Assembly (NCBI GenBank): GCA_963763885.1
Contig: CAVXQD010000003.1
Coordinates: forward strand, 140,085 to 204,084
DNA length: 64,000 nucleotides
DNA from: an uncultured Acidimicrobiales bacterium
GTDB taxonomy: Bacteria; Actinomycetota; Acidimicrobiia; Acidimicrobiales; JANYDT01
Reading direction: 5' to 3'
Shown here: piece by piece, positions 11,885 through 49,901 of the stretch
Layout of the letters: each line of letters opens with the position of its first letter
How positions within the stretch are numbered: the first letter of the stretch is position 1
Notes under the pieces: generated by a model
The model's database searches: none
The model's input: the letters and a program-made list of their open reading frames with translations, nothing else
What the model was told of the DNA's origin: nothing
Program-made: the position numbers and the translations under genes

Positions 11885-11958
11885 GGGTGCGCCTGTTCGT
11901 GAACGGTCCGAACTAGGGTGCGTGGCGGCGTTCGGCCCACAATGACTAGAGCTTGCCC

Positions 11959-12645: not shown

Positions 12646-12663
12646 GACGAGCGAGAACTACAG

Positions 12664-28580: not shown

Positions 28581-28930
28581 GGGGGTGCCTGGTTTCGACC
28601 TTGGTAGTCAACGCAGGTGAAGCGAGCCGTGGTCTCCGGATCCACGTAAAAGAGTCGGAAAACAAACACAAACGCCAACGACAACGTTGCGCTCGCAGCC
28701 TAAATAACTGCGATGTCGGTCTGGCCCCGGTTCCTCGGGCCAGCCGCCGGCACTATCTAGAGGGACTTACTCAGACGCAGTGCTCATGGGCGGCTGAGGA
28801 CATTAAGTGAGCTGGGGCCCTCCGGAGTTGCCGGTGTCGAGGGAGGACCCGAGATCTCTCCACCGGCTGCGCTCGGAGAAGCCCTGCTGCGAAGCTGAGG
28901 GACGGGGGTTCGATTCCCCCCACCTCCACC
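28581..28930 (+). ncRNA. ssrA: transfer-messenger RNA (tmRNA)
   Basis: 5' GGGGGUGCCUGGUUUCGAC pairs with 3' CACCUCC-A-CC, including a G3:U pair. T-arm GGGGGUUCGAUUCCCCC. Internal tag frame ends ...GCC AAC GAC AAC GTT GCG CTC GCA GCC TAA (..ANDNVALAA*, 28674-28703). Confidence 0.9.
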
Positions 28931-28932
28931 GT
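28906..28932 (+). repeat. att core copy 1 (authentic tmRNA T-arm/acceptor 3' end)
   Basis: gggttcgattccccccacctccaccgt; identical 27-mer at 31137-31163, and 24/24 at 38642-38665. Confidence 0.9.
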
Positions 28933-28977
28933 GTTTTGAAGCATTTCCCCTGGTCAGAGAGGGTGTGGTTCTCTGGT

Positions 28978-29040
28978 CAGGGCGTCAGAGGGCGCATTTA
29001 GGGCGTGCCAACGTGTGGAACGACGCCCTTTGCACGCCCT
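28978..29040. repeat. cluster of AGGGCG(T/C)(G/C) motifs at the left end of island 1 (3 direct, 2 inverted)
   Basis: cagggcgtc 28978, agagggcgc 28987, tagggcgtgc 29000; inverted acgccct 29022, cacgccct 29033. Confidence 0.7.
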
Positions 29041-29103
29041 TGGCGGCGATGCCAACTGTTGAATGAGGGCCTGACCTGGCTGAACTCCACTTCGATCCCA
29101 GAC

Positions 29104-29127
29104 GGGACGGGGGAATCGCACCCCCGG
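29104..29127 (+). repeat. degenerate tmRNA T-arm-like remnant
   Basis: gggacgggggaatcgcacccccgg versus tmRNA gggacgggggttcgattccccccac. Forms GGGGG-N7-CCCCC. Confidence 0.55.
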
Positions 29128-29311
29128 CCCTCAGGTTGGTTGCCGAACGTAGCCAGACACACGACGCCTCGCTCCACGTGGCCAATTCCGCAGACGGAAC
29201 TCTGGTGTTTCACGCCTGCTCAAGCGAGAGCGGTTTCGAGGCGCTGAATTCGCCACCCCGTTCGGGACATGATCAGCGCCCCTCTGGTCGAGGGGGTGCG
29301 GACGTGAGCGG

Positions 29312-30238
29312 CTACAGCAGCTGCCGGAGTTCCTTGACCCGGTCACAGCAGTCGTCGAACGTCGAGCGAGGAGCGCCCGGCCAGACGAGATTCCGCAGAA
29401 CGACCGATTCATACGCATATCGAGCGACTGTGCTCGTTGCCGGATCCCAGGCAGGACTCTGTGCGAAACCTCCTGGGGGACGGTCTGCCGTTGGCATCCC
29501 GGCAGCGCGAGAGTGCTGACAGACCTCGCGAGCGAGCACGTCGACCGGCAGATCGCTGAGCTGTGCGACCACGGTATCGTCACGCAGTAGCCGGTCGATG
29601 TCGTAGTAGTGCCGCGCTGTCACTTCTTTGCGGACGTCATCGCCTTCGCTGGCAGCGTGATGCAGCAACACGAGTTTGTCGACGAGCGTGCGGACTGGAT
29701 CGAGAACAAGAATGCTGACGGGTGTTGCCTCGTCGAAATCGATCGGCAGTTCAACGGATTCCGCGTGCTCGACGATCAGCGACTGCACTGCGAGACGGCG
29801 CTGCGGCAGAGCACCACCCCTGGTACCGATCTCGATGAGGACGCCTGGACGAAGCACGCCAGGCGCCTTGGTGGTCGGGTAGTGCACGATTGCGGTTCGC
29901 TTTTCGCCCTTGGTTGTCGACGAACCATCGACGATCGGTTCAATTCCCGTGGCAGCGGCTGCGCCGGCCATGAACTCCTTCAACGTAGCGTCACGGGATC
30001 CCTTGCCGCCGGCGGGCAGCACAGCTATCAGGTCAACGTCCTCGGAGAATCGTTGAATGAGTCGATGCGCCTTCGACAGACTTGTCCCGCCCTTGAACAC
30101 AATCGAGCAACCGACATTGCGAGATGCGGTAGCAACGCCACGCAACACCTCGGTCACCCAAAAGTCCTTCTCGATGTGGTCAGCCGGAATCCCAGTGAAC
30201 GCCGCTACGCGGCGAAACGTAGACCTCGAACTCGTCAA
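29312..30238 (-). CDS. abiEii: AbiEii/AbiGii nucleotidyltransferase toxin (DUF1814), island 1
   Basis: 308 aa; ...HIEKDFWVTEVLRGVA...SIVFKGGTSLSKAHRLIQRFSEDVDLI... Confidence 0.85.
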   Translation of the reverse strand: MTSSRSTFRRVAAFTGIPADHIEKDFWVTEVLRGVATASRNVGCSIVFKGGTSLSKAHRLIQRFSEDVDLIAVLPAGGKGSRDATLKEFMAGAAAATGIEPIVDGSSTTKGEKRTAIVHYPTTKAPGVLRPGVLIEIGTRGGALPQRRLAVQSLIVEHAESVELPIDFDEATPVSILVLDPVRTLVDKLVLLHHAASEGDDVRKEVTARHYYDIDRLLRDDTVVAQLSDLPVDVLAREVCQHSRAAGMPTADRPPGGFAQSPAWDPATSTVARYAYESVVLRNLVWPGAPRSTFDDCCDRVKELRQLL

Positions 30239-30259
30239 GATCGTCGCGCAAAAGACGGC

Positions 30260-30868
30260 TCACGAGACCGCCCCTTTCTGCAACTGGTCGGCTAGTTCAG
30301 CCCATCGTTCTCGGGTTGCCACATGGTGCTCGCAAGCGACCGACGATGCGATGGTGTTGAGGCGTACCTCTCCGGCGGCGGCGAGTCGGGCGATCGTGGA
30401 CGCCAGTTCGTTCCATGGCTTCTCGATAGATGCTGGACCGCTACGGAGCACTTCGAGTATGGCAACCTCGACCGGCGACAAACCAGCGATTCGGCGCTCG
30501 ATCGACCGAGACACGAAACGAGCCCCTTCTGCCGGAGTCGGAGCGCGACCAGGAACGGCGACGACAGCGACGGACGGCACCTGCGTAGTCAGGCCCAACG
30601 AATGCGCCGCCGACAGCTCAGCCAACCCAGCACCCCGCCCTGCAACCTCCAATGCAACATCAGCGGCCCGCGGCGATGCCATCCCGAACCTCGTCTTAGG
30701 ACCCTTCCAGTACAAACCTTTGCGAACCCGTATTACTCCACCATCAGCTGCGAGCCGAGACAACGCGCATTCAACCGCTCGACGAGAGCCCGGCATGTCG
30801 CCCACCGCGATGAAGGCGCGGAGCGGCGCCAAAGCAACACGCTCACGAACTATCTCAGCCGTACTCAT
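30260..30868 (-). CDS. abiEi: AbiEi-family antitoxin / transcriptional regulator, island 1
   Basis: 202 aa, directly upstream of abiEii on the same strand. wHTH-like ...RAVECALSRLAADGGVIRVRKGLYWKG... and ...AAHSLGLTTQVPS... Confidence 0.8.
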   Translation of the reverse strand: MSTAEIVRERVALAPLRAFIAVGDMPGSRRAVECALSRLAADGGVIRVRKGLYWKGPKTRFGMASPRAADVALEVAGRGAGLAELSAAHSLGLTTQVPSVAVVAVPGRAPTPAEGARFVSRSIERRIAGLSPVEVAILEVLRSGPASIEKPWNELASTIARLAAAGEVRLNTIASSVACEHHVATRERWAELADQLQKGAVS

Positions 30869-30990
30869 GAGAGGAAACTGTATCTATTTTCTCTCAAGAG
30901 GTCAAACGACGCCTTTCGCCGGCGATGCGTAGGACCAACGAAAAGCGTCACGGTTGGCGTTCGTCGACCACGACCGACGAGCAGCAATCA

Positions 30991-31030
30991 GAGGGCGTGG
31001 CCAGGGCGTGAGGGCGCACGGAGGGCGTGC
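30991..31030 (+). repeat. four tandem 10-bp repeats at the right end of island 1
   Basis: gagggcgtgg ccagggcgtg agggcgcacg gagggcgtgc. Same core motif as the left-end cluster, with a period of 10 bp (helical phasing). Confidence 0.8.
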
Positions 31031-31136
31031 TTCTCCGGCCTTCAGCGGCCGTGAAAGGTCCTCAACGGCACGACGAAAATGCCCTCTGAGCTGCACCAAC
31101 AGGTTTCTGGCCAGGCAGAACAGAATCGACGCAAGA

Positions 31137-31163
31137 GGGTTCGATTCCCCCCACCTCCACCGT
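31137..31163 (+). repeat. att core copy 2 (island 1 / island 2 junction)
   Basis: 27/27 identity to the tmRNA 3' end. No matching 5' acceptor strand upstream, so it is not a gene. Confidence 0.9.
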
Positions 31164-31165
31164 TT

Positions 31166-31187
31166 GCCCTGGTCAGGGCATGTTTTT
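31166..31187 (+). terminator. displaced tmRNA-type terminator hairpin plus T-run
   Basis: gccctggtcagggc followed by atgttttt. The same hairpin follows att copy 3 at 38671-38692. Confidence 0.55.
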
Positions 31188-31194
31188 ACATGTC

Positions 31195-31212
31195 TTGACA
31201 CGGGTTTGACAC
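31195..31212 (+). repeat. paired TTGACAC motifs (left end of island 2); third copy at 31306-31312
   Basis: ttgacac ggg t ttgacac, 11-bp period. Confidence 0.7.
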
Positions 31213-31374
31213 ATCGCGACAGCGCGGCGACGTTGGATGTTCAGATCCTGGTGCCGGTGACCTGCGCAAATGCTCATCGCCGTGGGCTTCGGGCGTGACG
31301 CACGCTTGACACACCACGACAACGCCCGGTGAAACCAGATGCGGCTGTGGTGCTGAGCCTCCACGCAAGAAAGA

Positions 31375-31393
31375 GGGTCCGATTCCCCCCACC
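31375..31393 (+). repeat. degenerate T-arm-like remnant
   Basis: gggtccgattccccccacc; homologous to 38858-38881 together with the following ..cg[g/a]aattcgc.. flank. Confidence 0.55.
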
Positions 31394-31480
31394 CCGGAAT
31401 TCGCCGAAATCGGCGGAAATGTGCCGGCCAATTTGGCGAGGTTGACGTTGCTGACGACCACGTTCAAGCATGATTGCTGA

Positions 31481-34400
31481 ATGAACGGAGCGCGTGAAGG
31501 GAGCGGAACAAAGCCTGAAGTGGGCACGGTGACGGTGATGTTCACTGACTTGGCGGGGAGTACGGCGATGCGGGCCCGTTTGGGGGAGGAGGCGGCCGAC
31601 GGGCTCCGGGGTGTGCACGACGCGATCCTCGCCGACGCCATCACAACCAACGGCGGACGCGTCGTGAAGCATCTCGGCGACGGATTCATGGCGGCGTTCC
31701 CGAGCGCGGCCGGAGCCGTTGGCGCGGCCGTGGCGTTGCAGCAGGAGATCGATCGGGCCAATCGTCGTGGCGCGACCGAGGCCATGCGGGTTCGTGTTGG
31801 TATCTCGACCGGTGACGTGACCTTCGAAGGCGGCGACTGCTTCGGACTCCCGGTCGTGGAGGCTCAGCGTCTCGAAGCCTCAGCGGAGCCGGGCACGATC
31901 CGATGCGCCGAGATGGTCAAGCTGTTGGCCCGCGGCCGCGGCGGACACGAGTTCGTCTCGCTCGGCGAGCTCGAATTGAAAGGCCTCGCCGAGCCGCTGC
32001 CCGTCTGTGAAATCAGGTGGACACCGCTCGACGACGAAGTCGCGTCGGCGAACGTCGAAGCAGGCCTGCCGCCGGTCTTCGCTCACGCCGGCGGTCTCCC
32101 GTTCTGCGGACGGGCCGAGGTGTTCGATCACCTCGTAGATGCCTGGAAACTATGCGCTGCCGGCGGGTTCGAGACGGTCCTGCTCGCCGGCGAGCCGGGG
32201 ATCGGCAAGACCCGTCTCGCCCAGGAACTCGCGTCACTCGTGCACGGCGGTGCCGGACTCGTGCTCGCCGGTCGGTGCGACGAAGACGTCACCGTGCCAT
32301 TCCAAGCCTTGGGCGCCGCGCTCGATTGGCAGATGAAGCAGACCGCTGCCGACGCCCGCCTCGCCGCACTCGGCGAACATGGCGGTGATCTCGTCCGTCT
32401 CGTGCCTGACCTCGCGAATCGCATTGTCGGCCTCCCTTCCGCGCTCGAAGCCGACGCCGACACCGAGCGCTACCGCCTCTTCCAAGCCGTCCAATCATGG
32501 CTGTCGATCGGCGGCGTTGAGCATCCCCGACTGTTGGTGATCGACGACCTCCACTGGGCCGACAAACCGACCCTGCTGCTCCTCAAGCACCTCATCGCCA
32601 ACCCCGTCGCCGGGCTCATGGTGCTTTGCACCTACCGCGACACCGACGTCGACCGCTCCCACCCTCTGTCGTCGATGCTCGCCGACTTCCGTCGCATGCC
32701 CGCAGTGACCCGCATCGCCGTGGCTGGCCTCGCCGACGACGGTGTGCGTGACCTCCTCGTGCGCATGGGCGGCCACGACCTCGACTCGGCCGGTCTGGAG
32801 TTCGCCGCGCTCGTGCACCGTGAGACGTCAGGCAACCCGTTCTTCGTCGGTGAAGTCCTCCGCCACCTCGCCGAGACCGGCGCGCTCGTCGAACAAGCCG
32901 GGCGGTGGACGAGTTCGCTGCGTCCGGAAGAAGCCGGAATCCCCGAAGGCATCCGTGAAGTCGTCGGCCGACGCCTCAGCCGACTCGGCGAAGACGTCGA
33001 ACAAGTCCTGCGCGCCGCAGCCGTCATCGGCTACGAGTTCGACGTCGACCTCCTCGCGGACGTCATTGGCCGCACCGCCGACGAGGTACTCGACGCGCTC
33101 GACACGGCGCGTGCGGCGAGTCTCGTGATCGAGGTCGGTGTCGACCGGCACCGCTTCGCCCACGCGCTCGTTCGCGAGACCTTGCATGGCGAGTTGTCGG
33201 CCAGCCGACGAGCCCGTCAACACCGGAAGGTCGCCGAGGCTCTCGAAGCACGTCACGCCGGTGATCTCAACACGGTGGTCGCCGACCTTGCCACTCACTG
33301 GGCCGAAGCGTCAGCGGGCGGCGATCCGGGCCGCGCCATCGAGCTCGCCACCCGAGCCGGCGCACAAGCCAATGAACGCGGCGCGTGGGAGAACGCCATC
33401 CGCTGGTACCAGAGCGCGCTCGAACTCATGGAAGATCAGCGCGCATACGATGTTGAACGTCGCCACACGCTCGTCGCGCTTGCCCAGGCCCAGGCCGACG
33501 CCGGAGCGGTCGCCGACGCCCGCGACAACGTCGTCCAAGCGGCTCGGTTGGCCCTCGATGCGGGTGACATCGACACCGCATGCGCCGCTCTCACGGTCAA
33601 GACGCGGGCGAGCTGGGCAGCGAGCGATCCCGCCGACACGGAGAAAGTTGTGCTCCTTCGCGCGGCGTTGGCCACGCCGACGCTCACCGATCCGCAACGC
33701 GCAGACCTGCTGAGCCAACTGGCAACCGAGATGATGTTCGAGGCCGATATCCCGGGCCGGCGTGCAGCAGTCGAGGAGTTCATGAGCGTGCTCCCCGCCG
33801 TCGATGCGCATGTCCACGCACGACTGCTCACGAACGTCGGCGCGTTCGGCGGAGTCCCGTTGCGAAGCAGTCTGGAGTCGCTGGACGCACTGATGGAACT
33901 TGCGCTCGCGGTTGCCCGCCCGGATCAGCGGTTCTGGTTACGTAGCAATCGCTTCTGGATGAACCTGCAACTCGGTCGACGCGATGTCCTCGACGAGTCG
34001 CTCGCTCTTTCCGAGCGACTCGTCGCGAGCGCTCCGAGCCGCGTGCAATGGGTCCCAGCGAACATGGCCACCATGGTCTATGTCCTCGACGGCGACCTCG
34101 CCAGGGCCGACGACGCAGTCGCGGAGATGAGTCGGCTCCTCGAGGGATGGGCCGTGCCAGAGGCTGCGAACTATCGGACGACCACTGGCGTGTCGATCGC
34201 CCGTGAGCGTCGAACTCTCAGCGATCTGTTGTGGCTTGCCGAGGTGATGGAGCAGATGGGCCCGCCGACAAGCGCGGCTCGAACCCTCGCCGCCTTCATC
34301 CGCCTCGCATCAGGTGATGCGGCCGCTGCCGCCGCGGCACTCGGCCTGGTCCGAGTCGACGAGATTGTCGAGGACAACGCCTATGGCGCCGTTGTCGCTC

Positions 34401-34792
34401 TGTGGGGCGAGACGGCCGTCAACGTCGGAACAGACCACCAGTGCAGAGCGCTGGAGGCGGTTCTCGAACCCCTGGCCGACGTACATCTCCTGACCGGCGG
34501 GTTGTACTGCGGCGCGGCAGATCGCGTACGAGGACTCCTGCTCGATCGTCTCGGCGAACACGAGCACGCCGACTCATTGTTCGCCGACGCGGTCCGCCAG
34601 CACGAGGGCCTTCGCTCGCCCACGTGGGTCGCCCGCACCCAGCTCGACTGGACCGATTCGCTCCTGCGCCGCCTCCAGCCTGACCTCGCGCGTACCCACC
34701 TCGACGCCGCCGCCACGGTCCTCGGCGGCCTCGACCTCCCTGACAACCAACTCCGCCTCGCGGAACTCCGCTCCCGGCTCGCTGCCGACTGA
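31481..34792 (+). CDS. class III nucleotide cyclase domain - STAND/AAA P-loop NTPase - TPR-like repeat protein (no C-terminal HTH)
   Basis: 1103 aa. Cyclase: VTVMFTDLAGSTAMRARLGEE...VKHLGDGFMAAF...RVRVGISTGDVTFEGGDCFGLPVVEAQRLEA. NTPase: Walker A LLAGEPGIGKTRL, Walker B RLLVIDDLHWADKPT. About 650 aa of helical repeats follow. Ends ...LRLAELRSRLAAD. Confidence 0.85.
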   Translation: MNGAREGSGTKPEVGTVTVMFTDLAGSTAMRARLGEEAADGLRGVHDAILADAITTNGGRVVKHLGDGFMAAFPSAAGAVGAAVALQQEIDRANRRGATEAMRVRVGISTGDVTFEGGDCFGLPVVEAQRLEASAEPGTIRCAEMVKLLARGRGGHEFVSLGELELKGLAEPLPVCEIRWTPLDDEVASANVEAGLPPVFAHAGGLPFCGRAEVFDHLVDAWKLCAAGGFETVLLAGEPGIGKTRLAQELASLVHGGAGLVLAGRCDEDVTVPFQALGAALDWQMKQTAADARLAALGEHGGDLVRLVPDLANRIVGLPSALEADADTERYRLFQAVQSWLSIGGVEHPRLLVIDDLHWADKPTLLLLKHLIANPVAGLMVLCTYRDTDVDRSHPLSSMLADFRRMPAVTRIAVAGLADDGVRDLLVRMGGHDLDSAGLEFAALVHRETSGNPFFVGEVLRHLAETGALVEQAGRWTSSLRPEEAGIPEGIREVVGRRLSRLGEDVEQVLRAAAVIGYEFDVDLLADVIGRTADEVLDALDTARAASLVIEVGVDRHRFAHALVRETLHGELSASRRARQHRKVAEALEARHAGDLNTVVADLATHWAEASAGGDPGRAIELATRAGAQANERGAWENAIRWYQSALELMEDQRAYDVERRHTLVALAQAQADAGAVADARDNVVQAARLALDAGDIDTACAALTVKTRASWAASDPADTEKVVLLRAALATPTLTDPQRADLLSQLATEMMFEADIPGRRAAVEEFMSVLPAVDAHVHARLLTNVGAFGGVPLRSSLESLDALMELALAVARPDQRFWLRSNRFWMNLQLGRRDVLDESLALSERLVASAPSRVQWVPANMATMVYVLDGDLARADDAVAEMSRLLEGWAVPEAANYRTTTGVSIARERRTLSDLLWLAEVMEQMGPPTSAARTLAAFIRLASGDAAAAAAALGLVRVDEIVEDNAYGAVVALWGETAVNVGTDHQCRALEAVLEPLADVHLLTGGLYCGAADRVRGLLLDRLGEHEHADSLFADAVRQHEGLRSPTWVARTQLDWTDSLLRRLQPDLARTHLDAAATVLGGLDLPDNQLRLAELRSRLAAD

Positions 34793-34925
34793 CCCCTGTA
34801 GAACTAAATAGTGCTCGAATAAGACGCGCACTGACTTCGACGCGTGGTGGGAGCCGGATGAGAACCGTCCGCGGACATCGCGGGAGGCGCTCTGAAATTC
34901 TTCGACGTTCCCAATCTGTGGATAT

Positions 34926-34956
34926 TTGACAGTTTAGTCACACGTATGCAAACTGT
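34926..34956 (+). promoter_or_regulatory. candidate promoter/operator of the abiEi-2 operon
   Basis: AT-rich spacer. TTGACA at 34926-34931. Inverted repeat acagttt (34929-34935) / aaactgt (34950-34956). ctgtgga occurs twice. Confidence 0.35.
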
Positions 34957-34973
34957 GGAAGAATCACATATTG

Positions 34974-35759
34974 ATGACACGTGCAGACTTCTCCGCGTTG
35001 TGGGATCAGTTGCTGTCCGAGGGCGTGAACACTGTCACGATCGACGAGGTCGAGTCGCGAACGGGAGCAACCCGCAACGCGGTGTACCTCGGCGTCAAGT
35101 ATGCGATGGACCGCAAACGGCTGTTCTCGCCCGCGCGCGGCTTCTACGTGATCGTGCCGCCCGAGTACCGGGCGGCTGGTGTGGTGCCAGCGACCCACTT
35201 CATCGACCCGATGATGAACCATCTCGGCATCGAGTACTACCTCGGTCTCGCGACCGCTGCAGGCTGGTGGGGATCGTCGCACCACGCGTCACAAGAATTC
35301 CAAGTCATCGCGAACGGACGACTACCGGACCGGACTATCGGCAAGGTGCGACTGCGCTTCATCAGCCGGGCCAGGCTCGACGACAAGGCAATTCGTCGTG
35401 TCGCAGGGCCACGAACGATGCTCAACGTGTCGACTCCCGACCTCACGGCCGTTGACCTCGCCGCCGACCCCGCGCATGTTGGCGGACTGTCCAATGTCGC
35501 GACCATCCTCGCCGAGCTCCCGGACCTCGACGGCCACGGCATCGCCACTCTTGCGAAACATCGCACCCGAGCTGACGCTCGACGTCTCGGTTGGCTCCTG
35601 TCACTCGTTCGCAACGACCTAAACCTACGTGCACTTATGAAAGTCGCTGACCCGCACCATGGACAGCCGACACTCATGGCATCGAACAAGCCACGAACCG
35701 GCCAGGTCGACAATGACTGGAACGTGCTCGTGAACACGAACGTCGAAGCCGACCTGTGA
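34974..35759 (+). CDS. abiEi: AbiEi-family antitoxin, island 2 (copy 2)
   Basis: MTRADFSALWDQLLSEG...ARGFYVIVPPEYRAAGVVPATHFIDPMMNHLGIEYYLGL...GGLSNVATILAEL.... Paralog of 37081..37893. Confidence 0.85.
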   Translation: MTRADFSALWDQLLSEGVNTVTIDEVESRTGATRNAVYLGVKYAMDRKRLFSPARGFYVIVPPEYRAAGVVPATHFIDPMMNHLGIEYYLGLATAAGWWGSSHHASQEFQVIANGRLPDRTIGKVRLRFISRARLDDKAIRRVAGPRTMLNVSTPDLTAVDLAADPAHVGGLSNVATILAELPDLDGHGIATLAKHRTRADARRLGWLLSLVRNDLNLRALMKVADPHHGQPTLMASNKPRTGQVDNDWNVLVNTNVEADL

Positions 35760-36204
35760 TCTCTCCGAACGCCCTTACCGCCTGGAGAACGACGCACCCC
35801 TGGGCCGACGACGAGCAGGTCGAACAAGACCTGATCATGACGCGAGTCGCGATCGAAATCGCCAACGATCCGCATCTCGGCAACGTCTTGGCGTGGCGCG
35901 GCGGAACATGTCTGCACAAACTGTTCGTCCCGTCGGCTGCAGGTACAGCGAAGACCTCGACCACATCGCATACGGCCTGTCGGTCAAGAACAACGACATG
36001 CGCCAGCTCTGCGCTGCCTCCTCGGCACTCATGAGCCTGACCGTGCTGACTCGCTCCGCGCGGAGGAGATCGAAAGACTCCCGCAATGTGGCCCGGCCAT
36101 GGCCAGCCTTGGCACAAACGTCGTCGTGTGGCTCGCCGTGTCCGTCGTCGGCCAGCGCCCGCTCGTCGACCAGGTGCGGAACCGATCGCGCCGCCACAGA
36201 CTGA
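35756..36204 (+). pseudogene. abiEii: AbiEii toxin remnant (frameshifted and truncated)
   Basis: GTGA overlap with abiEi. The N-terminus ...EQDLIMTRVAIEIANDPHLGNVLAWRGGTCLHKLFVP loses frame near 35940. RYSEDLDH continues in another frame, then similarity is lost. Runs into the 3' end of the convergent abiEii. The 3' limit is approximate. Confidence 0.6.
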
Positions 36205-36285
36205 GCCAGCTTCGTCGGGAGAAGAACCGCTCCGTCTGCACGGCAGTCGCCGCCTGCCCCAAGCACTGGATCGACGCTTCCGCCG

Positions 36286-37084
36286 TCACGGAGTCGCGCC
36301 GTCGAGCGCTTCGATCGCTTCGAGCACGGCCCGGGCGGCGACCGCGCCACTGTTGATCTGGTAGCCCGCAGGCCATTGGGCGACGAGCAGTTCGAGATCT
36401 GTGGTGAACGTCGCATCTTGCAGCTTCGCGGTGAGGTTGTCGTGGGCGCGGGTGATCGTCCATCCGGCTGGTCGGTACGGGCTGAAGCACTGGGCGATAG
36501 CGGCTGGTGTGACGCCTGCGTGTTCGACGGGCAAGCCAGAGGTCGAACAAGTCGCGTCCTTTGCTGCGTTGGAACAACGCGCGGATCTTGGTGGCGGTAA
36601 GTTCTTCGATCGTAAAGGTCGCCACGTCGGCTGAGCCGGTGAACCACGGGCTATCGACTGCGAATAAGCGCGTGACGGTTGGCTGGGCAGGTGAACGTTC
36701 GAAGGTGTTCATTTCCACTTTGATCTGCAAGCGTTGGCCGCTGAGGAATGTGGAGCGCAGTCGGGCTTTGGGGTGTCGGCCGATCTCGGCGCGGACGTCA
36801 TCGAAACCAACGAAGCGTGCGACGTCGCGGATTGCGTCGAGCACGTCGCCGACACCACCTTCGCTGCGCCGGACGTAATCGAGGTCTTCGCTGTACCGCC
36901 ACGGCCGATCGAGCCACAGTTTATGAAAGCACGTACCTCCGCGGAAGACGAGATCGCTGCCGAGGAGCGGGTGGTTGGCGAACTCGATGATCAACCGCGA
37001 CAGCACGAGGTCTTGTTCAACGTTCTCGGGGCTGGTCCACGGGACCTGTGTGCGCCAGTGGGCGATGTCGGCTTGGGTGATCAC
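36286..37084 (-). pseudogene. abiEii: AbiEii toxin with a single frameshift in a C3/G3 run
   Basis: MITQADIAHWRTQVPWTSPENVEQDLVLSRLIIEFANHPLLGSDLVFRGGTCFHKLWLDRPWRYSEDLDYV...RDLFDLWLA then shifts. The family-like tail VEHAGVTPAAIAQCFSPYRPAGW...EALDGATP* is in the -1 frame (ORF 36286..36534). The extra base lies in ggg 36529-36531. Confidence 0.75.
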
Positions 37085-37893
37085 AGGTCGTGCTCGATTC
37101 GGGTGTTGATCTGGACTCGCCAGCGGTCATCCCGGTCGATCGATGGCGGCCGACCGGTGGCCAGCGGCGTCACATCGGCTTGGTCGACAAGCTGTGCGAG
37201 TCCGTCGAGATCAATCGTGGTGCCGGTCTCATTCGCCATGAACTCGATCAGATGGCCGGCGCGTTGCACGGCGGCAACCGGCCGCAACCTGGCTGCGTCG
37301 ACCAGAGCTTGCGGAACGAGGCGGCCCTCGACGAGAAGGTCACCAATCACGGTGGCGACGTTGGATAGCCCTCCACCGGCACGGGGAAAGCTGACGAGAT
37401 CGAACACCGTCGCAACAGCGGCCGACACGGTGACTCGTCCGGTTGGGACATTGGTTTGTTCGCACTGCGTTTCTTCGGTGTTGGATCGTTGGATGAACTG
37501 GATGCGACCGCCACCGATCTGCCGGTCGCGTAACCGGGCCGGCGTTACGACTTGGAGGACCATCGCCGCTTGATGCGACGCACCGTGGATTGCTGCGGCG
37601 GAGAGGAACCCGACATAGTACGGGTGGCCGAGGTGGCGCATCATGGGGTCGATGAAGTGGATCGGCGGCGGCGCGCCAGCGGCACGGTATTCAGGCGGGA
37701 CCGGCACCCACGCGCCTTTGGTGACCGAAATGAGTTTCCCGGCCTCCCGGGCGCGTTGCAGGCTGTTCGACACCACGTCCGTGCCAATGCCGAGGAGCGC
37801 GGCAACCTCGGCAGTCTCGATGTAATGACGACCGCGGCTCATCAGCCAGTCCGCCAGTTCGCTCGGAGTGATCGTGGCCGTTCTCACCGGCAC
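37081..37893 (-). CDS. abiEi: AbiEi-family antitoxin, island 2 (copy 3)
   Basis: 270 aa; ...KGAWVPVPPEYRAAGAPPPIHFIDPMMRHLGHPYYVGFLSAAAIHG...GGLSNVATVIGDL.... GTGA overlap with the downstream abiEii. Confidence 0.85.
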   Translation of the reverse strand: MPVRTATITPSELADWLMSRGRHYIETAEVAALLGIGTDVVSNSLQRAREAGKLISVTKGAWVPVPPEYRAAGAPPPIHFIDPMMRHLGHPYYVGFLSAAAIHGASHQAAMVLQVVTPARLRDRQIGGGRIQFIQRSNTEETQCEQTNVPTGRVTVSAAVATVFDLVSFPRAGGGLSNVATVIGDLLVEGRLVPQALVDAARLRPVAAVQRAGHLIEFMANETGTTIDLDGLAQLVDQADVTPLATGRPPSIDRDDRWRVQINTRIEHDL

Positions 37894-38012
37894 AGCGTAC
37901 CAAAGACTGGCATGGTGCCGGTGTTTGATACTTCACAGGGGGCAAATTCGCTTGGCGAGGCCAGGCGCTGGACCATCAATCGAAGTCCGGCATCAGCTCG
38001 TGCGTGTAGTAG

Positions 38013-38395
38013 TTAAGCCCGGGTCAGAATCAAGCGGCATGTTCCCGACGTCGTGACCTCGAATCCGCGGTCGATCTCACCCGGACTTCGATGATGTTGG
38101 GCCAGCGGTCGAGGCTGTCGTCGGCACGCGTCGCCAGGGTCACGACAATGCCGCCGCGGCCAGGGTGGGTCGACGATGCGGGCGAGCGGTCGGCGTGTGT
38201 AGTGGAGGGCGGGCCGTTGGATCTGGTTCGTCGGGCCGGATTCAGATTCGACGATAACTCCGGCATCCATACGGCGATGTGCTCGGCAACGGAGGCCACC
38301 GAGACGAGATCGTGCGACACCAGGAGCACTCCTACGCCGAGATCGTTGGCGAGTTCGCGTACCAGCTCGATGACGGCGGCTTGGACCTAGACGTC
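38013..38395 (-). pseudogene. 3' remnant of an oligopeptide/dipeptide-type ABC transporter ATPase
   Basis: VQAAVIELVRELANDLGVGVLLVSHDLVSVASVAEHIAV, then a frameshift to MDAGVIVESESGPTNQIQRPALHYTRRPLARIV (HPYT-like tail). No Walker A/signature part upstream. Confidence 0.6.
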
Positions 38396-38495
38396 GCGAC
38401 GCGACCGGAATCTGGGCGTTACAAGGTCGGCTACTCGAGAGACGGAAACTCCATCACCCAGAACCAAAAGTGGCCGAACTCCTAAGCGCGCTTAC

Positions 38496-38532
38496 TTGAC
38501 ACAGTTTTGACACGGTGACACGCGTTTGACGC
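38496..38532 (+). repeat. four phased TTGACAC-type motifs at the right end of island 2
   Basis: ttgacac 38496, ttgacac 38507, gtgacac 38515, ttgacgc 38526 (spacing 8-11 bp). Confidence 0.75.
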
Positions 38533-38641
38533 AGTTCTCCAGCTTCCAGGGGACTCGAAAGGCATCGACGGGAACGACCAGAAACATGCTCTGACCAGGT
38601 GAAACACCCGCTGAGCAGCGAAAAGGCAAACGAGAACATGC

Positions 38642-38665
38642 GGGTTCGATTCCCCCCACCTCCAC
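38642..38665 (+). repeat. att core copy 3 (island 2 / island 3 junction)
   Basis: gggttcgattccccccacctccac, 24/24 identity to the tmRNA 3' end. The following ~50 nt are homologous to 31164-31216. Confidence 0.9.
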
Positions 38666-38670
38666 TATTT

Positions 38671-38692
38671 GCCCTGGTCAGGGCATGCTTTT
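38671..38692 (+). terminator. second copy of the tmRNA-type terminator hairpin
   Basis: gccctggtcagggc followed by atgctttt. Confidence 0.5.
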
Positions 38693-38698
38693 CATGCC

Positions 38699-38796
38699 TT
38701 GACACGGGTTTTGACACAGTGTGAAAAGGGTGCGCGCCCGAGGAAGTGCCCATGACCTGCGGCAATGCCGGGTGGGCGCTGACACGGTTTTGACAC
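38699..38796 (+). repeat. two pairs of TTGACAC motifs (left end of island 3)
   Basis: ttgacac 38699 and 38711; ctgacac 38779 and ttgacac 38790. Confidence 0.7.
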
Positions 38797-38857
38797 GGCG
38801 CTGCATTGTCACCCTCGCCGGTACTGAGCCCGCTAGCTGCGCTTTCTGTTCTGATTC

Positions 38858-38881
38858 GGGGGGTCACATTCCCCCCACCTC
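38858..38881 (+). repeat. degenerate T-arm-like remnant (perfect GGGGGG-N7-CCCCCC hairpin)
   Basis: ggggggtcacattccccccacctc. Confidence 0.55.
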
Positions 38882-39324
38882 GAAATTCGCTGCAATTAGC
38901 CGGAATGAGCCGGAATTCGCCGACTATCTGGCTAAGGGCCGGCCTGAACGAGGTGATCAAACGGCCTTCGGACTTCGAGGGTTCTACACCGCTGCTAACG
39001 AGGCGAAGGCTGCCTCGGGCGGGTTGCCGACAAACCTCACACCCACGCTGTGGGCCTTCGCGAACTGCGCGACCGAAAGCCAAAAGCGTTCGATCAGTAC
39101 TCGAGACCCAAGGCTTGGGCTTCGCGAGTCATCTCGTCGGCGATCTCGCGGCGTAGCGCCTCGTTCTTCGATCGAAACGTGTGGACGTCGGTGCGACATG
39201 ACGGTTCTGTGATGCTGCCACCAGCCGGAAAACTGATCCGTCAAGGGTAGATCGACCGCCGAGTTGTATTTGCTCTGGACAACTAGGTAGCGAGTCGGTA
39301 CCAGTTCGGTAGTAGCGTGTGGTC

Positions 39325-39555
39325 ATGTCGATCCAGATCGCGTTGCGGCTCCCCGATGACGTGGTCAAGTACATCGATGCCGAGGTGGCCGCCGGAAGGG
39401 CTAAGAGTCGTTCCGATGTCGTCGCTCGTTTTGTAGAACGAGACCGTCGACGGATACGGGCAGCCGAAGACGTCGAGCGTCTCCTCGCCGACCGCACGTC
39501 GGACTTCGATGATCTCGCCTTGGCAGCAGTGGCGACGAAGCTCGACATCGACTGA
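39325..39555 (+). CDS. ribbon-helix-helix antitoxin (MazE/CopG-like)
   Basis: MSIQIALRLPDDVVKYIDAEVAAGRAKSRSDVVARFVERD...; stop overlaps the mazF start (TGATG). Confidence 0.75.
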   Translation: MSIQIALRLPDDVVKYIDAEVAAGRAKSRSDVVARFVERDRRRIRAAEDVERLLADRTSDFDDLALAAVATKLDID

Positions 39556-39854
39556 TGCGGCCGATCCACATAGCGCAACTCGACAAGCCCCGCCCTGTCC
39601 TCATCCTGACGCGAGACCTCGCACGCGTGGTGCTCACGAACGTGACCGTTGCACCGATCACGACTCGCGCACGCGGGCTCGCCGTCGAGGTGCCGGTCGG
39701 CGTGCGCAATGGCCTTGGCGAAGCATCGGTCGTGAGCTGCGACAACGTGCAGACCATTCCGGCGACGGCGCTCGGACGCCTCGTCGGATACCTGTTCGAC
39801 GACGAAGAGCCCCTCCTGACGGAGGCCATCCTCGCTGCGTTCGACCTCACGTAA
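39555..39854 (+). CDS. mazF: MazF/PemK-family endoribonuclease toxin
   Basis: 99 aa; RPIHIAQLDKPRPVLILTRD...VTVAPITTRARGLAVEVPVG...SVVSCDNVQTIP. Confidence 0.85.
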   Translation: MRPIHIAQLDKPRPVLILTRDLARVVLTNVTVAPITTRARGLAVEVPVGVRNGLGEASVVSCDNVQTIPATALGRLVGYLFDDEEPLLTEAILAAFDLT

Positions 39855-39974
39855 CCCGCTGCCAACGGCTAGGCCGATTACACGGCGGCTCGGTCACTGG
39901 CCGAGGAGTAGCCCTCCGGACAGCGGCGGCGGTTTACTGCTCGACGTTGTTCGGTTCGATGGCTTCGGGAGGCG

Positions 39975-41144
39975 TTGCAGATAACCGAGGTTCCCGATGT
40001 TCGACGCGCCGATCTTTTGTCTGCGTTGGCCACCGAGCTGATCTTCGAAAACGACGTCCCGGGCCGGAAACGAGCCGTGGACGCGCTCTGGGAGATCTTT
40101 CCTTCGTTGCCTCCCGAGGACTGCGCCCGACTACTGCAGAACGTCGCTGCGTTCGGCATGGTCTTCTCAATGGACCGGCTCGACCTCATCTGCCTTCACC
40201 TGGACCGTGCGGTGCAGGTCGCTAAAGCGGATCAGCTGCGCATGTTGCAGATGAACCGATTCATGCGGCATCTCCAACGGGGCAACCGTGATCAGGTCGA
40301 CGAAGCCTTTCATGCCGCTGAGCAGCTGATGGCGAAACAGACAGGCCGTTGGCAATGGCTCCCGCACATGCTTGCGACGATCCGCTGTGTTGTGGACGGG
40401 GACCTCGCTGCCGCAGCAGGGGCCCGGAAGGTCGCGTCGGGACTACTGCGTACGCTGGATGTTCCGGAGGCGGAGAACTACAGCGTCACGATGCCAATCA
40501 TGATCGGTCGCGAACAGCGATCGCTCGGAACGCTGCTCCGCTATGCCGAGGCGATGGAGACGGTGGGGTCAGCTTCCGGTCCGCCTCGGGCACTCGCTGC
40601 ATTCATCCGGTTTGCGTCCGGCGATCTGGAATCCCCTCGCCGCGCATTGGACCTCGTCCGCGTAGAGGAGTTCGCCGACGATGCCGGCCATGCCGTCGTC
40701 GTCGCGCTGTGGAGCGAGATGGCCAGCACGCTCGGATCCGACGCACAACGGCGTGCCTTCATGGAGGCCCTGGAGATGGAAGCTGGCGTACACCTACTTG
40801 CCGGCGGGATCTACCTCGGCGCTGCGGATCGCCTGCGCGCGCTGCTACTCGATCGCCTCGGCGAGCACGAGCAGGCCGACACGCTGTTCGGAAACGCAGT
40901 CCGCCAGCATGAAGACCTCCGCTCGCCCACCTGGGTCGCGCGCACCCAACTCGACTGGGCCGAGGCGCTCCTGCGCCGAAGTTCGATGGCTGAGGCGCGG
41001 GCCCACCTTGAAGCCGCCGCTGGAGCGCTCGGCGACCTCGACCTCCCCGACAACCAGCTCCGCCTCGCTGAACTCCGAGCGGGGTCAGCAAAACCCGGTG
41101 TAGCCGCTTGTGACCTCGGTTCCATAGACTCCAGTCATGAGTGA
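39975..41144 (+). pseudogene. 5'-truncated paralog of the cyclase-STAND-TPR gene (C-terminal repeat region only)
   Basis: 389 codons, colinear with residues ~715-1103 of 31481..34792 (ADLLSALATELIFENDVPGRKRAV vs ADLLSQLATEMMFEADIPGRRAAV; LRSPTWVARTQLDW and DLPDNQLRLAELR shared). No cyclase or P-loop part. Only a TTG start is available. Confidence 0.7.
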
Positions 41145-41688
41145 CGCTGCCGTTGCCCCGATGGACGAAGAAGAGTTCGTCGCGTTCGAACTCGCCAGCC
41201 CCGAACGCCACGAATTCGTCGACGGCGTGATCCGGGCTATGACCGGGGCGTCGATCCGCCACAACGACGTCGCCCTGAACTTGGCGATGGCCTTGCGTGC
41301 CGCGGCGAAGGGCACCCGGTGCAAGGTGAACATCGAGGGGGTGCGCCTCAAGGTCAACAGCCGCCGGCATTACTACCCCGACGTGATGGTCAGCTGTGAG
41401 GAGCCCAACGACACCCACTCCCAATCGGCCCCGTGCCTTATCGCCGAGGTCCTCTCGCCCACCACCTCGTCGATCGACCGTGGTGAGAAGCGCATTTCGT
41501 ACATGGCGTTGCCATCGCTCCGTCACCTTTTGCTCATCGACCTCGAGGCCGGCAACATCGAGCATCAGTGGCGCGCCAACAGCGACGACGCCTGGTTCTT
41601 CGAAATCGGCATCCCCGGCGCCACGCTCCACCTGACGTGTCCGCAAGCGGCATTAATCAGCGTGGACGACATCCTCGTCGAAGCCTGA
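41137..41688 (+). CDS. Uma2-family (DUF820) restriction-endonuclease-fold protein
   Basis: 183 aa; ERHEFVDGVIRAM...HNDVALNL...YYPDVMVSCE...PCLIAEVLSPTTSSIDRGEKRISYMALPSLRHLLLID. 8-nt overlap with the preceding ORF. Confidence 0.85.
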   Translation: MSDAAVAPMDEEEFVAFELASPERHEFVDGVIRAMTGASIRHNDVALNLAMALRAAAKGTRCKVNIEGVRLKVNSRRHYYPDVMVSCEEPNDTHSQSAPCLIAEVLSPTTSSIDRGEKRISYMALPSLRHLLLIDLEAGNIEHQWRANSDDAWFFEIGIPGATLHLTCPQAALISVDDILVEA

Positions 41689-41749
41689 CGAAGGCGTCGT
41701 CGGTCAGCCGCGGCCTTCGCGCAAGTCTCGCCGGTCATACGATGGACTG

Positions 41750-42565
41750 GTGGACCTCGCTGGAATCGTTGACCTTGCTCGGTACTCCATCGTTGGTGCG
41801 AATTCCGACGCGCGCACTGCGCTGATTTCGAGGTGCCAGGAGCAGCTCGCTGCTGTTGGTGCAGCGGTGTTGGAAGGCTTTGTACTACCCGAGGCACTAG
41901 CGCGGATCGTCGCGCACGTCGATCCACTTGCCCCACTCGCATTTCATAAAGCAAAGCAACACAACGTGTATCTGGAAGCCGACGATCCGGACTACCCCGA
42001 TGATCATCCCCGGAATGCAAAAGAGACCACGACGTCGGCCACGCTCGGCAATCACCACCTGCAGGGATGCGCGGAACTTCAGGCCCTCTACGCATCCGAT
42101 GACTTCAAGGCATTCGTTGCAGAGGCACTCGGTTACGAGCGCCTGTATCCGTACCAAGACGCGGTGTCGGGAGTGAACGTACTTTTCTATGCGCCCGGCA
42201 CAGCGCTCGGCTGGCACTTTGACAACGCAGAATTCACCACCACATTGATGATCCGCGAAGCCGCTTCCGGCGCGGCGTTCGAGTACGTCCCGTTCCTTCG
42301 GACGGACACTGACCGCGCCTACGACGCCATAGCTGCGTTGCGATCGGGCGAACAAACCCCCGAAAAATCGGGAGTGCGGCAACTGTTCCAAACCGACGGA
42401 ACCCTGGTGTTGTTCAAGGGTTCGAGAACGGTTCACCGCGTCACAACCGTCGAAGGTCCCGTAACCCGATTGCTGTCGACGATGACCTTCTCACCCGTCG
42501 AAGGAGCTCGGCTCGCGCCAGTCACCCAAAAGACATTTTACGATTACACCGAGCCCCAGGACTGA
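41750..42565 (+). CDS. Fe(II)/2-oxoglutarate-dependent oxygenase family protein
   Basis: 271 aa; HxD...H pattern (LGWHFDNAEF ... GSRTVHRVT). Confidence 0.65.
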   Translation: MDLAGIVDLARYSIVGANSDARTALISRCQEQLAAVGAAVLEGFVLPEALARIVAHVDPLAPLAFHKAKQHNVYLEADDPDYPDDHPRNAKETTTSATLGNHHLQGCAELQALYASDDFKAFVAEALGYERLYPYQDAVSGVNVLFYAPGTALGWHFDNAEFTTTLMIREAASGAAFEYVPFLRTDTDRAYDAIAALRSGEQTPEKSGVRQLFQTDGTLVLFKGSRTVHRVTTVEGPVTRLLSTMTFSPVEGARLAPVTQKTFYDYTEPQD

Positions 42566-48156: not shown

Positions 48157-48495
48157 GGAACCAAGGTACCTCCAGACAGCCGCTCGGTGAACCCGTGCCT
48201 GAACGCGTACCTAGAACGTTGATCCCTCGCTTCCAGCGCTGCGTTACAAGCGGGGCTGCGGTTTGGCCGGAGCGTCAGCGCTGGTGGTCCCGATTCAGAA
48301 GACGTCGGCCAGGTCTGACCGTGTCGGAAACAAGCGGGTCTGCCGGGACCATGGCTCCCGTGTTTTACGGGTGTCTGGGTCTTGTTGTGGTTGCAGCGTG
48401 TTGTGGCTGGTCACAGGGTTGTTTGTGGGGGAGATGGGGTGATCACTGGTTGTGATCACGAACACCAGTTCGATCAGTCGGTGTATACTTTCTGT

Positions 48496-49704
48496 ATGGA
48501 CGCGGCGTTGGTGGACATCACGGAAGGGTTGGGTGAGGGGTTCGCCCGGTTGATGTTGTACGTGTCTGAACATGTTCTGTGTGCTGATGATGTGGTTGCT
48601 GTTCGACGGCTTGTTGATACTGCGGAGTTGGTGTGTACGCGTACGGTCGCGAAGTTTGCGAAGGAGGCTGAGTTTCGTGAGTTGGGGTTCCGCGATATTG
48701 GTTCGTGGATGGCTGCGAAGACTGGTTCGCGTCGCACGGAGGGTCATGCTCGGTGTGAGCAGGCGAAGTTGTTGGAGGATTTGCCTGAGGTTGCTGCTGC
48801 GGTGTTGGCTGGGACGTTCAGTGCTGCGCATCTCAGGTGCTTGTCGGCGAGCGTGTCCAGGAAGCGTCTCCCGTTGGCGCAGCGTGATCAGCATGTGTTT
48901 GTGAACGCAGCGGTGTGGTTGGACGCGTCACTGTTTTCACAGTTGGTCCAGCGTTGGGTTGCTCTTGCGGATGACGAGTTGTGTGATCCCAGCCAGCCTG
49001 GGAAGGAGGACGGCCAGTTCGATGCGCGCCGGTTGCAGTTGACGTTGATGTTGGATGGGATGTGGCGGCTGAATGGCGTGTTTGACCCGGTCGCGGGTGA
49101 AGCCATCCAGGCGGTCCTTGCGGCTGTCACCCCGGCACCGTCCAAAGACGATCCGCGGACGCCAGCCCAACGTCGTGCTGACGGGTTCATTGAGTGGTGC
49201 AATTCGTTCCTTGCAGAGCAGGACCGTGTGCATCTGGGGAACGAACGCCCCAATGTGAACGTGGTGTTCCACACGGCGGACGGTTCCGCGCATACCACCG
49301 GCGGCCATTTCCTGCGGAATTGGCAGTTGGGTCAGGTGATGTGCGACGCAACGTTCACCGCTGTGGCTGCGACGTTGACAGGCCGACCCTTCGATGTGGG
49401 CACCCCGTTACGGGCGATCCCGGCAAGGAACCGCAAAGCAGTTGTCGTGAGGGACCGGTGTTGCCGGTTCCCGCATTGTGGCCGGCCGGCGAGGTGGTGT
49501 GAGATCCACCACATCCTGGAACGTGAGAACGGTGGAGCCCATGAGCTTCCAAATCTTGTTCTTCTGTGTGCTTATCATCACCGTGAAGTCCACCGGCAAG
49601 GCATCAAACTCGCCTGGGACGGCCCCACGCTGACAGCCCGGCTGCCCAACGGCACCCTGTTACACGGCCCCCCACACCCCACCACAAAACCAACGTTGCT
49701 CTAA
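48496..49704 (+). CDS. DUF222 / HNH endonuclease family protein (13E12-type)
   Basis: C-terminal HNH: RDRCCRFPHCGRPARWCEIHHILERENGGAHELPNLVLLCAYHHREVH. Start set at ATG 48496. Confidence 0.85.
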   Translation: MDAALVDITEGLGEGFARLMLYVSEHVLCADDVVAVRRLVDTAELVCTRTVAKFAKEAEFRELGFRDIGSWMAAKTGSRRTEGHARCEQAKLLEDLPEVAAAVLAGTFSAAHLRCLSASVSRKRLPLAQRDQHVFVNAAVWLDASLFSQLVQRWVALADDELCDPSQPGKEDGQFDARRLQLTLMLDGMWRLNGVFDPVAGEAIQAVLAAVTPAPSKDDPRTPAQRRADGFIEWCNSFLAEQDRVHLGNERPNVNVVFHTADGSAHTTGGHFLRNWQLGQVMCDATFTAVAATLTGRPFDVGTPLRAIPARNRKAVVVRDRCCRFPHCGRPARWCEIHHILERENGGAHELPNLVLLCAYHHREVHRQGIKLAWDGPTLTARLPNGTLLHGPPHPTTKPTLL

Positions 49705-49833
49705 CCCAAACTCATCGTCCCAGGGCGCCGGAGTATCGGCGCCCTGGCGAAGCCGCGTCCAACCAGCGGAGTGGGTGGGGGGTGACCCGAAGGGAGGGAC
49801 CCGACGAGCTTGCGAGGCGGGAGGGTACCCGGA

Positions 49834-49901
49834 GGAGGCAGGACCCGCCACCCACGCAGCGGACCGGCCGGTGGAGGCAGGACCCGCCATCCACGCAGCG
49901 G
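49834..49901 (+). repeat. two direct 29-bp repeats (39-bp period), intergenic
   Basis: ggaggcaggacccgcca[c/t]ccacgcagcgg at 49834-49862 and 49873-49901. Confidence 0.85.

Follow-up and report, generated by a model that had tools for sequence, protein, structure and literature searches.

In Dehalococcoides, ssrA genomic islands (ssrA-GIs) lie in tandem and are bounded by a 20-bp repeat of ssrA, the transfer-messenger RNA (tmRNA) gene; 15 of these islands carry no integration module and have been proposed to be cis-mobilizable elements (McMurdie et al., 2011; PMC3146451). The notions of the cis-mobilizable element (CIME) and of accretion were defined from streptococcal integrative and conjugative elements (ICEs), namely ICESt1 and ICESt3 of Streptococcus thermophilus (PMC5704250; Pavlovic, 2004 and Bellanger, 2011, cited there), and CIMEs arise by decay combined with further site-specific integration (PMC5704250). 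Tandem arrays of islands at tRNA and tmRNA genes have also been mapped at scale with Islander and TIGER (PMC4383910, PMC12424338). In this study, the DNA directly 3' of ssrA was analyzed in a 64-kb stretch from an Acidimicrobiia-like actinobacterium (contig CAVXQD010000003.1), which is called the window and to which all positions refer. The locus has probably been built up by tandem accretion, in which two related families of elements that target ssrA were inserted and then decayed, leaving CIME-like remnants without an integrase.

The general layout is that of the described systems. Like the ssrA-GIs of Dehalococcoides, of which many have no integration module, multiple tandem islands are located directly 3' of a single-copy tmRNA gene. 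As in CIMEs, attL and attR have been kept (in islands 1 and 2), the genes for integration and transfer are absent, and related elements stand in tandem at the 3' end of the target gene. Furthermore, as in the islands mapped by Islander and TIGER, the target gene is regenerated by island sequence, the displaced 3' fragment is located at the far end and the arrays are formed in tandem at one tDNA.

A single tmRNA gene, functional and encoding the tag ANDNVALAA, was detected by both ARAGORN and Rfam (RF00023, 157.7 bits) at 28581–28931 on the plus strand, and its final 24–27 nt make up the first copy of the repeated core (28906–28932). In a pattern search of the window, the 27-mer GGGTTCGATTCCCCCCACCTCCACCGT was matched exactly at 28906–28932 and at 31137–31163 (plus strand, 27/27), and a third copy at 38642–38668 matched at 25 of 27 positions, its first 24 nt (38642–38665, plus strand, 24/24) being exact and the remainder diverging at CTAT. 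Dinucleotide shuffles gave an expectation of 0 matches for the 27-mer. An earlier interpretation of the locus, made from the letters of the window and hereafter called the sequence-only reading, had proposed tmRNA-core repeats at 28906, 31137 and 38642, and exact matching against the shuffles confirmed them. The 24-nt core covers the T-stem, the T-loop, the 3' acceptor strand and the discriminator of the tmRNA, and the block of identity among the copies starts inside the T-stem, in its 5' strand, and extends to the discriminator. When Rfam was run permissively (E ≤ 1) over 28.4–42 kb, the other core copies appeared as sub-threshold fragments only. With one tmRNA alone reported by ARAGORN and Rfam, copies 2 and 3 are supported as bare 3' tmRNA fragments, that is, att-type duplications rather than genes, as had been claimed. 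An intact ssrA thus stands at one end of the array with its 3' 27 nt identical to copy 2, and a displaced 3' fragment on the same strand, in direct repeat, is present for islands 1 and 2, while none closes island 3.

The sequences flanking the core copies carry phased repeats of two kinds. Island 1 (28933–31136) begins with a left arm of type A, or alpha (28933–29050, plus strand), which contains three AGGGCG units at 28979–29005, phased at 10–11 nt, and an inverted pair at 29024–29040. It ends with a right arm, or P arm (30960–31136, plus strand), in which four AGGGCG units at 30992–31027 (11-8-11 spacing) are followed by the approximately 110 nt common to all P arms. The left arm of island 2 is of type B, or beta (31164–31374, plus strand), with a hairpin at 31165–31180 and TGACAC pairs at 31196–31212 and 31296–31312; the right arm of this island (38465–38641, plus strand) carries four TGAC(A/G)C units at 38497–38532, again with 11-8-11 spacing and again followed by the shared part. 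A second beta-type left arm (38666–38860, plus strand) follows copy 3, with a hairpin at 38670–38685 and TGACAC pairs at 38700–38717 and 38780–38796. The left flanks of copies 2 and 3 therefore have about 110 nt of core-proximal sequence in common and, distal to it, at equal alignment positions and with equal spacing, four AGGGCG units at copy 2 versus four TGAC(A/G)C units at copy 3. An interpretation of this shared left arm as coding sequence was rejected, as it lies outside open reading frames (ORFs) in two homologous loci (L037 and L080, described below). On the plus strand of the whole window, clusters of AGGGCG and of TGAC(A/G)C are confined to these arms. The arms are paired by motif: island 1 has AGGGCG units in its left and right arms, and TGACAC units mark the two arms of island 2 as well as the DNA after copy 3. 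This pairing supports the existence of two apparent element families, alpha (AGGGCG) and beta (TGACAC), which would be related through the core-proximal left flank, and it agrees with the proposal in the sequence-only reading, which placed islands 2 and 3 in a single family and island 1 in a second one.

A set of four phased direct repeats in one arm, opposite two to three in the other arm, corresponds to the attP layout of arm-type sites, as in phage lambda and mycobacteriophage L5. By this analogy, we infer that the phased repeats would be arm-type binding sites for an integrase or excisionase, the two motifs representing two recognition specificities.

The type-B flank to the right of the core has a fixed order, consisting of the hairpin, two TGACAC pairs with units 11–12 nt apart and a degenerate core. 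The terminator-like hairpins stand directly 3' of the core in both type-B arms, which indicates that each of these arms once completed a functional ssrA. Copies 2 and 3 with their downstream sequences (31137–31213 and 38642–38718) are 92% identical over 78 nt; the homology that had been noted there, including the terminator hairpin and the TGACAC pairs, is thus real and continues further, through a second block in which 31375–31439 and 38861–38923 are 77% identical. Within this second block, a looser repeat search recovered two degenerate cores nested in the type-B arms that the sequence-only reading had overlooked. The first, inside the beta arm at 31375–31401 (plus strand), matches the core at 18 of its first 20 nt (31375–31394), and the second, homologous to it, at 38861–38887 (plus strand), matches at 17 of 20 (38861–38880). 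Each is located 220–240 nt past an intact copy, and the two are 79% alike over 53 nt. Their presence in both type-B arms implies that the beta ancestor of islands 2 and 3 already bore an older att scar.

The arms were also found in other Acidimicrobiia genomes. A scan of a genome collection with the 24-nt core, evaluated in pieces of 8 kb, yielded at least 119 loci in many phyla because this core is the conserved 3' end of tmRNA, and a second exact core was present in 0 of 119 pieces. Of these loci (at least 119), only two, L037 and L080, share the flanks; both are contigs of Acidimicrobiia metagenome-assembled genomes and are without a tmRNA gene. With blastn, the island 1 right arm aligned to the left flank of L080 at 75.7% over 169 nt (E 3e-23) and the island 2 right arm to that of L037 at 69.7% over 185 nt (E 6e-13). 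To the right of copy 1, the flank aligns over 111 nt at 94% identity with the right flank of the L037 core, and homologous flanks are present in L080 and at the ssrA of L129, one of the relatives with the 81% thioesterase homolog described below. At the L037 junction, the core stands between a left arm of the TGACAC type and a right arm of type A; at the L080 junction, it stands between a left arm of the AGGGCG type and, again, a right arm of type A. In L037 (also read as L136), a gene for a TraG/VirD4 coupling protein is located about 500 nt from the TGACAC-type arm, followed by VWA, PP2C, kinase-like and DUF4407 genes. On the other side of the core, the type-A arm is followed by an unrelated defense island of more than 9 kb with genes for TIR, SLOG, HMUDK, MazG, ThsB, Nmad2, RAMA and HsdM. 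The L080 junction is located between AbiEii and an NlpC/P60-transglycosylase gene. These loci show that arm-core-arm junctions join mobile, variable DNA elsewhere, and that the beta arm type terminates a conjugative element with a type IV coupling protein (T4CP). Positions 1–9300 of L136 (contig JANPBU010000017.1) form a dense defense island that starts directly at the type-A arm and includes three TIR proteins. A triad of VWA, PP2C phosphatase and kinase-like genes stands beside the coupling-protein gene in L136 (11491–17703) and in two related coupling-protein loci, L138 (13184–16216) and L140 (1368–7745), in differing orientations; DUF4407 accompanies the triad in L136 and L140 and was not recorded in L138. 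ORFs beside ssrA in other Acidimicrobiia loci, judged by eye only, resemble ordinary genes, such as those for MFS transporters. Scans of viral contigs gave nothing, and the copy-3 junction had no blastn match in plasmid and phage collections.

The left arm of island 1 contains an additional partial copy of the tmRNA T-arm in inverted orientation (29109–29137, minus strand), found by the repeat search, in which 26 of 29 nt are complementary to 28892–28920. The homologous arms in L037, L080 and L129 do not have this copy, which may have been left behind by an inversion or by an element that crossed over at another position.

Closer relatives were recognized through the thioesterase gene just upstream of ssrA, which has homologs at 81–86% identity; homologs at 62–70% were set aside because they are not linked to ssrA. 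All contigs with the 81% homolog end at or shortly past ssrA. One contig ends at the first bases of the core (L125), one inside ssrA (L128) and one, with an 84% homolog, before ssrA (L135), and the core is also the exact end point of a Logan contig from the L037 element. Taking L125, L128, L135 and L137 together, all from short-read metagenomes, the contig ends fall at or inside ssrA, two of them exactly at the 24-nt core. Such breaks fit a repeated core or downstream DNA that is heterogeneous in the population. L129 is the only close relative with readable sequence past ssrA, extending 260 nt beyond a tmRNA that has the same tag and is about 93–96% identical. Its trailer is a type-A arm of the L080 subtype, followed by sequence that matches nothing in the window.

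The islands are devoid of recognizable recombinase genes. The sequence-only reading had seen no tyrosine or serine recombinase in them, and a six-frame Pfam scan of 28.9–42 kb, together with scans of the larger ORFs, bore this out. Of the 90 six-frame stop-to-stop segments of at least 45 aa that lie outside identified genes in 28933–42000, none matched PF00589, PF00239, PF07508 or any other recombinase (Pfam, E ≤ 0.1), nor did the identified genes of this interval match a recombinase family. In the rest of the 64-kb window, no recombinase was present among the larger ORFs, which were chosen greedily and of which a few short ones were left unscanned. Between identified genes, room for a full-length recombinase gene exists at 37.9–40.0 kb alone, and this space is occupied by MazEF and non-coding arms. 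With the L138 integrase as seed, a home-made and insensitive jackhmmer search gave no match either in the window or in the loci that carry att sites. Genes for recombination and conjugation are absent from islands 1 and 2, which hold only toxin–antitoxin (TA) genes, STAND genes and gene fragments, with Uma2 located after copy 3.

In the proposed course of accretion, each incoming element would recombine within the 24-nt core at the 3' end of ssrA and would supply a new 3' end to the gene, with the type-B elements also providing a terminator hairpin. The displaced old 3' end would move to the far side of the element, so that repeated events would leave the copies at 31137 and 38642. The alpha element would correspond to island 1 and the beta element to island 2 (31164–38641) plus the DNA after copy 3. 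These elements would have lost their integrase and transfer genes, or would never have had them, leaving addiction and defense-type cargo with several deletion scars. The remnants could move only with a matching recombinase from a related element, acting in trans or in cis. With tyrosine integrases that target tRNA and tmRNA genes, an identity block such as that of the core copies is associated, in Williams's sublocation scheme, with crossing over inside the T-loop, flanked by the inverted halves of the T-stem. A tyrosine integrase would be the likeliest recombinase class. Because the hairpins after copies 2 and 3 mark formerly functional ssrA ends, the order of arrival is likely to have been the third unit, then island 2 and then island 1.

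Several observations weigh against this explanation. The TGACAC repeats could instead serve as promoter or operator elements, since the sigma-70 −35 consensus is likewise TTGACA, and the matched pairing of arm types is known from two fully bounded islands only. Among the relatives recovered, in which L129 is readable and the others break at ssrA, neither an empty ssrA site nor a strain without one of the islands was found. The L037 element was walked for 16 kb from its arm, and neither its other end nor an integrase was reached; no integrase with a matching attP was found. The related coupling-protein loci do carry genes for tyrosine integrases, full length in L138 and as a fragment in L140, and the tie that they provide between the arms and such an integrase is only suggestive, as both loci are without the tmRNA core and these arms. 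Finally, a metagenome scan for the P arm plus core (GAAAGG-N74-86-core) yielded only ordinary tmRNA genes, which indicates that the element family is sparsely sampled.

Although the layout is shared with the described systems, there are clear differences from each of them. The Dehalococcoides islands are characterized by a conserved module with DsiB, a CcrB-like serine recombinase next to attL, by a 20-bp repeat and by rdhA cargo (PMC3146451), whereas the present locus has no recombinase, a core of 24–27 nt and two types of phased-repeat arms. Its cargo consists of AbiE, MazEF, Uma2 and STAND genes, its host is an Acidimicrobiia-like actinobacterium and one of its arm types is tied to a T4CP-bearing conjugative element. 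The absence of a Resolvase or Recombinase domain of the DsiB type from 28.9–42 kb places the locus outside the Dehalococcoides family. With regard to CIMEs, the core and matched arms are present at both ends of islands 1 and 2 and not in the third unit; islands 1 and 2 would therefore be CIMEs by the features that can be read from sequence. However, the mobilization of CIMEs by a neighboring ICE has been shown experimentally for streptococci, while the present elements are known from sequence alone and no functional ICE is adjacent. The target also differs, being ssrA here and fda or a tRNA gene in CIMEs of the ICESt1/ICESt3 type. An Islander call requires an integrase gene in the island, and as there is none in the three units, they would go uncalled. 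As a kind, the ssrA hot spot with tandem accretion is well documented, and what is new is the host lineage, the arm architecture with its two apparent specificities and the tie to a T4CP-type element.

The third unit departs from the earlier proposal of three bounded islands. Islands 1 and 2 are bounded, as had been stated, and the third unit has a left arm only. Exact, degenerate and motif-cluster searches found no right arm or core closing it up to 64 kb, in line with the lack of a right-hand att site remarked upon in the sequence-only reading. No extent can therefore be assigned to this unit, which may not be a separate element at all. Housekeeping-type genes (YjdM, MsrB, SDR and carboxyltransferase) begin by about 47 kb, and the right end of the unit has probably been deleted somewhere between 41.7 and 47 kb. 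The unit would be a further beta-type element from which the N-terminal two thirds of the STAND gene and the entire right end, with attR, have disappeared. It is instead conceivable, although unlikely, that there are two islands only, copy 3 being the 3' end of ssrA as it first stood in the chromosome, with the native trailer to the right of it; island 2 would then resemble this trailer since it was derived from the ssrA-downstream region of a related genome. The stretch from 38.9 kb up to 64 kb without a right arm or core would be expected in that case, as would the housekeeping genes from about 47 kb; simple accretion would leave native DNA directly beyond the last repeat, and the hairpin after copy 3 resembles a genuine ssrA terminator. 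However, the TGACAC repeats after copy 3 match those of the island 2 right arm and of the conjugative-element arm in L037, and such repeats would not be expected in an attB flank. Moreover, the ssrA trailer of the closest readable relative is of type A, not type B, and the genes past copy 3 are of TA and defense type, with a truncated paralog of the island 2 cargo among them.

The cargo of the islands, as identified with Pfam and PADLOC, is largely that described in the sequence-only reading. The sole cargo of island 1 is an AbiEi/AbiEii operon on the minus strand, in which AbiEii is encoded at 29312–30238 (Pfam AbiEii 7e-29; PADLOC AbiEii 8e-50) and AbiEi at 30260–30868 (PADLOC AbiEi 5e-47); an ORF at 30323–31054 on the plus strand was rejected as spurious, the true gene there being the minus-strand AbiEi. 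Island 2 begins with a plus-strand gene (31481–34792) for a STAND protein of 1103 aa, composed of a cyclase domain (Pfam Guanylate_cyc 7e-12), an AAA_16/NACHT-like ATPase (AAA_16 6e-23) and a helical repeat. The cyclase domain alone of this protein was matched by PADLOC (PycC, 4e-7), and beyond this generic domain no defense system was matched in PADLOC, so that the earlier description of the cargo as almost purely defense is overstated. The STAND gene is followed by AbiEi (34971–35759, plus strand; Pfam and PADLOC) and the N-terminus of a truncated AbiEii (35756–36034, plus strand; Pfam and PADLOC), with 50% BLASTP identity over 58 aa to the neighboring AbiEii. A second module on the minus strand comprises AbiEii (36029–37084) and AbiEi (37081–37893), both recognized by Pfam and PADLOC. 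In total, AbiE is represented by two intact adjacent pairs (30868–29312 and 37893–36029, both minus strand) and one pair with a truncated AbiEii (34971–36034). An N-terminally truncated remnant of an ABC ATPase (38033–38386, minus strand) closes the island 2 gene list; it was recognizable only from the H-loop LLVSHDL, read by eye in the translation, and had no Pfam match at E ≤ 0.1.

After copy 3, a MazE-like RHH antitoxin (39319–39552, plus strand; Pfam RHH_1 5e-3) and a MazF/PemK toxin (39555–39854, plus strand; Pfam PemK 1.3e-10) precede the C-terminal fragment of a STAND paralog (39975–41144, plus strand). This fragment equals residues 722–1098 of the island 2 protein, with 53% BLASTP identity over 377 aa (E 3e-102), and at the nucleotide level 34237–34770 and 40544–41077 are 72% identical. 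The last gene that had been placed in island 3 encodes a putative endonuclease of the Uma2 family (41137–41688, plus strand; Pfam Uma2 1.3e-25; PADLOC PDC-S03 1e-20). PADLOC recognized the AbiE modules, and Uma2 as a candidate system. The truncated AbiEii, ABC and STAND genes are scars of decay.

These genes bear on another alternative, considered quite improbable, in which the units are working cassettes without recombinases, that is, att-bounded defense and TA modules that are excised, shuffled and transferred by an integrase on a related conjugative element, with the ssrA array as a cassette array. Such an arrangement would account for arms that are better conserved than the cargo (94% for the window against L037; 92% for island 2 against island 3, compared with 72% for the STAND gene), for the same arms around wholly different cargo in three genomes, for an island 1 that consists of arms and AbiE alone and for the assemblies of relatives that break at the core. 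However, the truncated genes in islands 2 and 3 point to decay, the arm conservation can also be explained by recent acquisition or by gene conversion between neighboring repeats, and neither a cognate integrase nor a circular form nor an alternative junction was seen. To the same low degree, the ssrA locus of Acidimicrobiia might be an integron-like array, in which cassettes with interchangeable AGGGCG and TGACAC arms are captured, reordered and exported by integrases on T4CP-type conjugative elements of the same arm type. Copying of the 3' region of ssrA and its trailer by segmental duplication or by unequal crossing-over, without site-specific integration, could explain why the core, hairpin, TGACAC pairs, degenerate core and STAND gene occur twice in the same order, yet it is very improbable given that the copies differ by 8–47% depending on the part, that the island 1 trailer is different, that nothing upstream of copy 1 corresponds to the left arms of copies 2 and 3 and that arm-core-arm junctions stand beside conjugation genes in other genomes.

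The locus adds a poorly studied and mostly uncultured actinobacterial class to the lineages with an ssrA hot spot for defense and addiction genes, and it leaves current models of island formation unchallenged. Its att sites are unusually readable, with arms better preserved than usual. The two repeat sets at identical positions in homologous arms look like a natural swap of specificity, and could serve to pair orphan islands with recombinases. All three units would escape finders that rely on an integrase, and it is exactly here that short-read assemblies from related populations break.

On the upstream side of ssrA, prfB, ftsE and ftsX are present (10769–13560), and about 15 kb of accessory metabolic genes (13.5–28.5 kb) lie between ftsX and ssrA. 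No smpB was seen between ftsX and ssrA or among the larger ORFs scanned in the window. In the 81% relative L125, approximately 5 kb of extra genes (HpcH, ABC, DUF6297 and DUF6069) are located between the PhyH-like gene and the thioesterase gene, which indicates that the upstream side of ssrA is variable too. On the downstream side, a DUF222-HNH endonuclease gene (48382–49704) stands among the housekeeping genes; DUF222-HNH proteins are of the 13E12-repeat type, which is common in actinobacteria. Just downstream of this gene, within the next ORF, a tandem pair of 34-nt units with 94% identity is located at 49829–49901.

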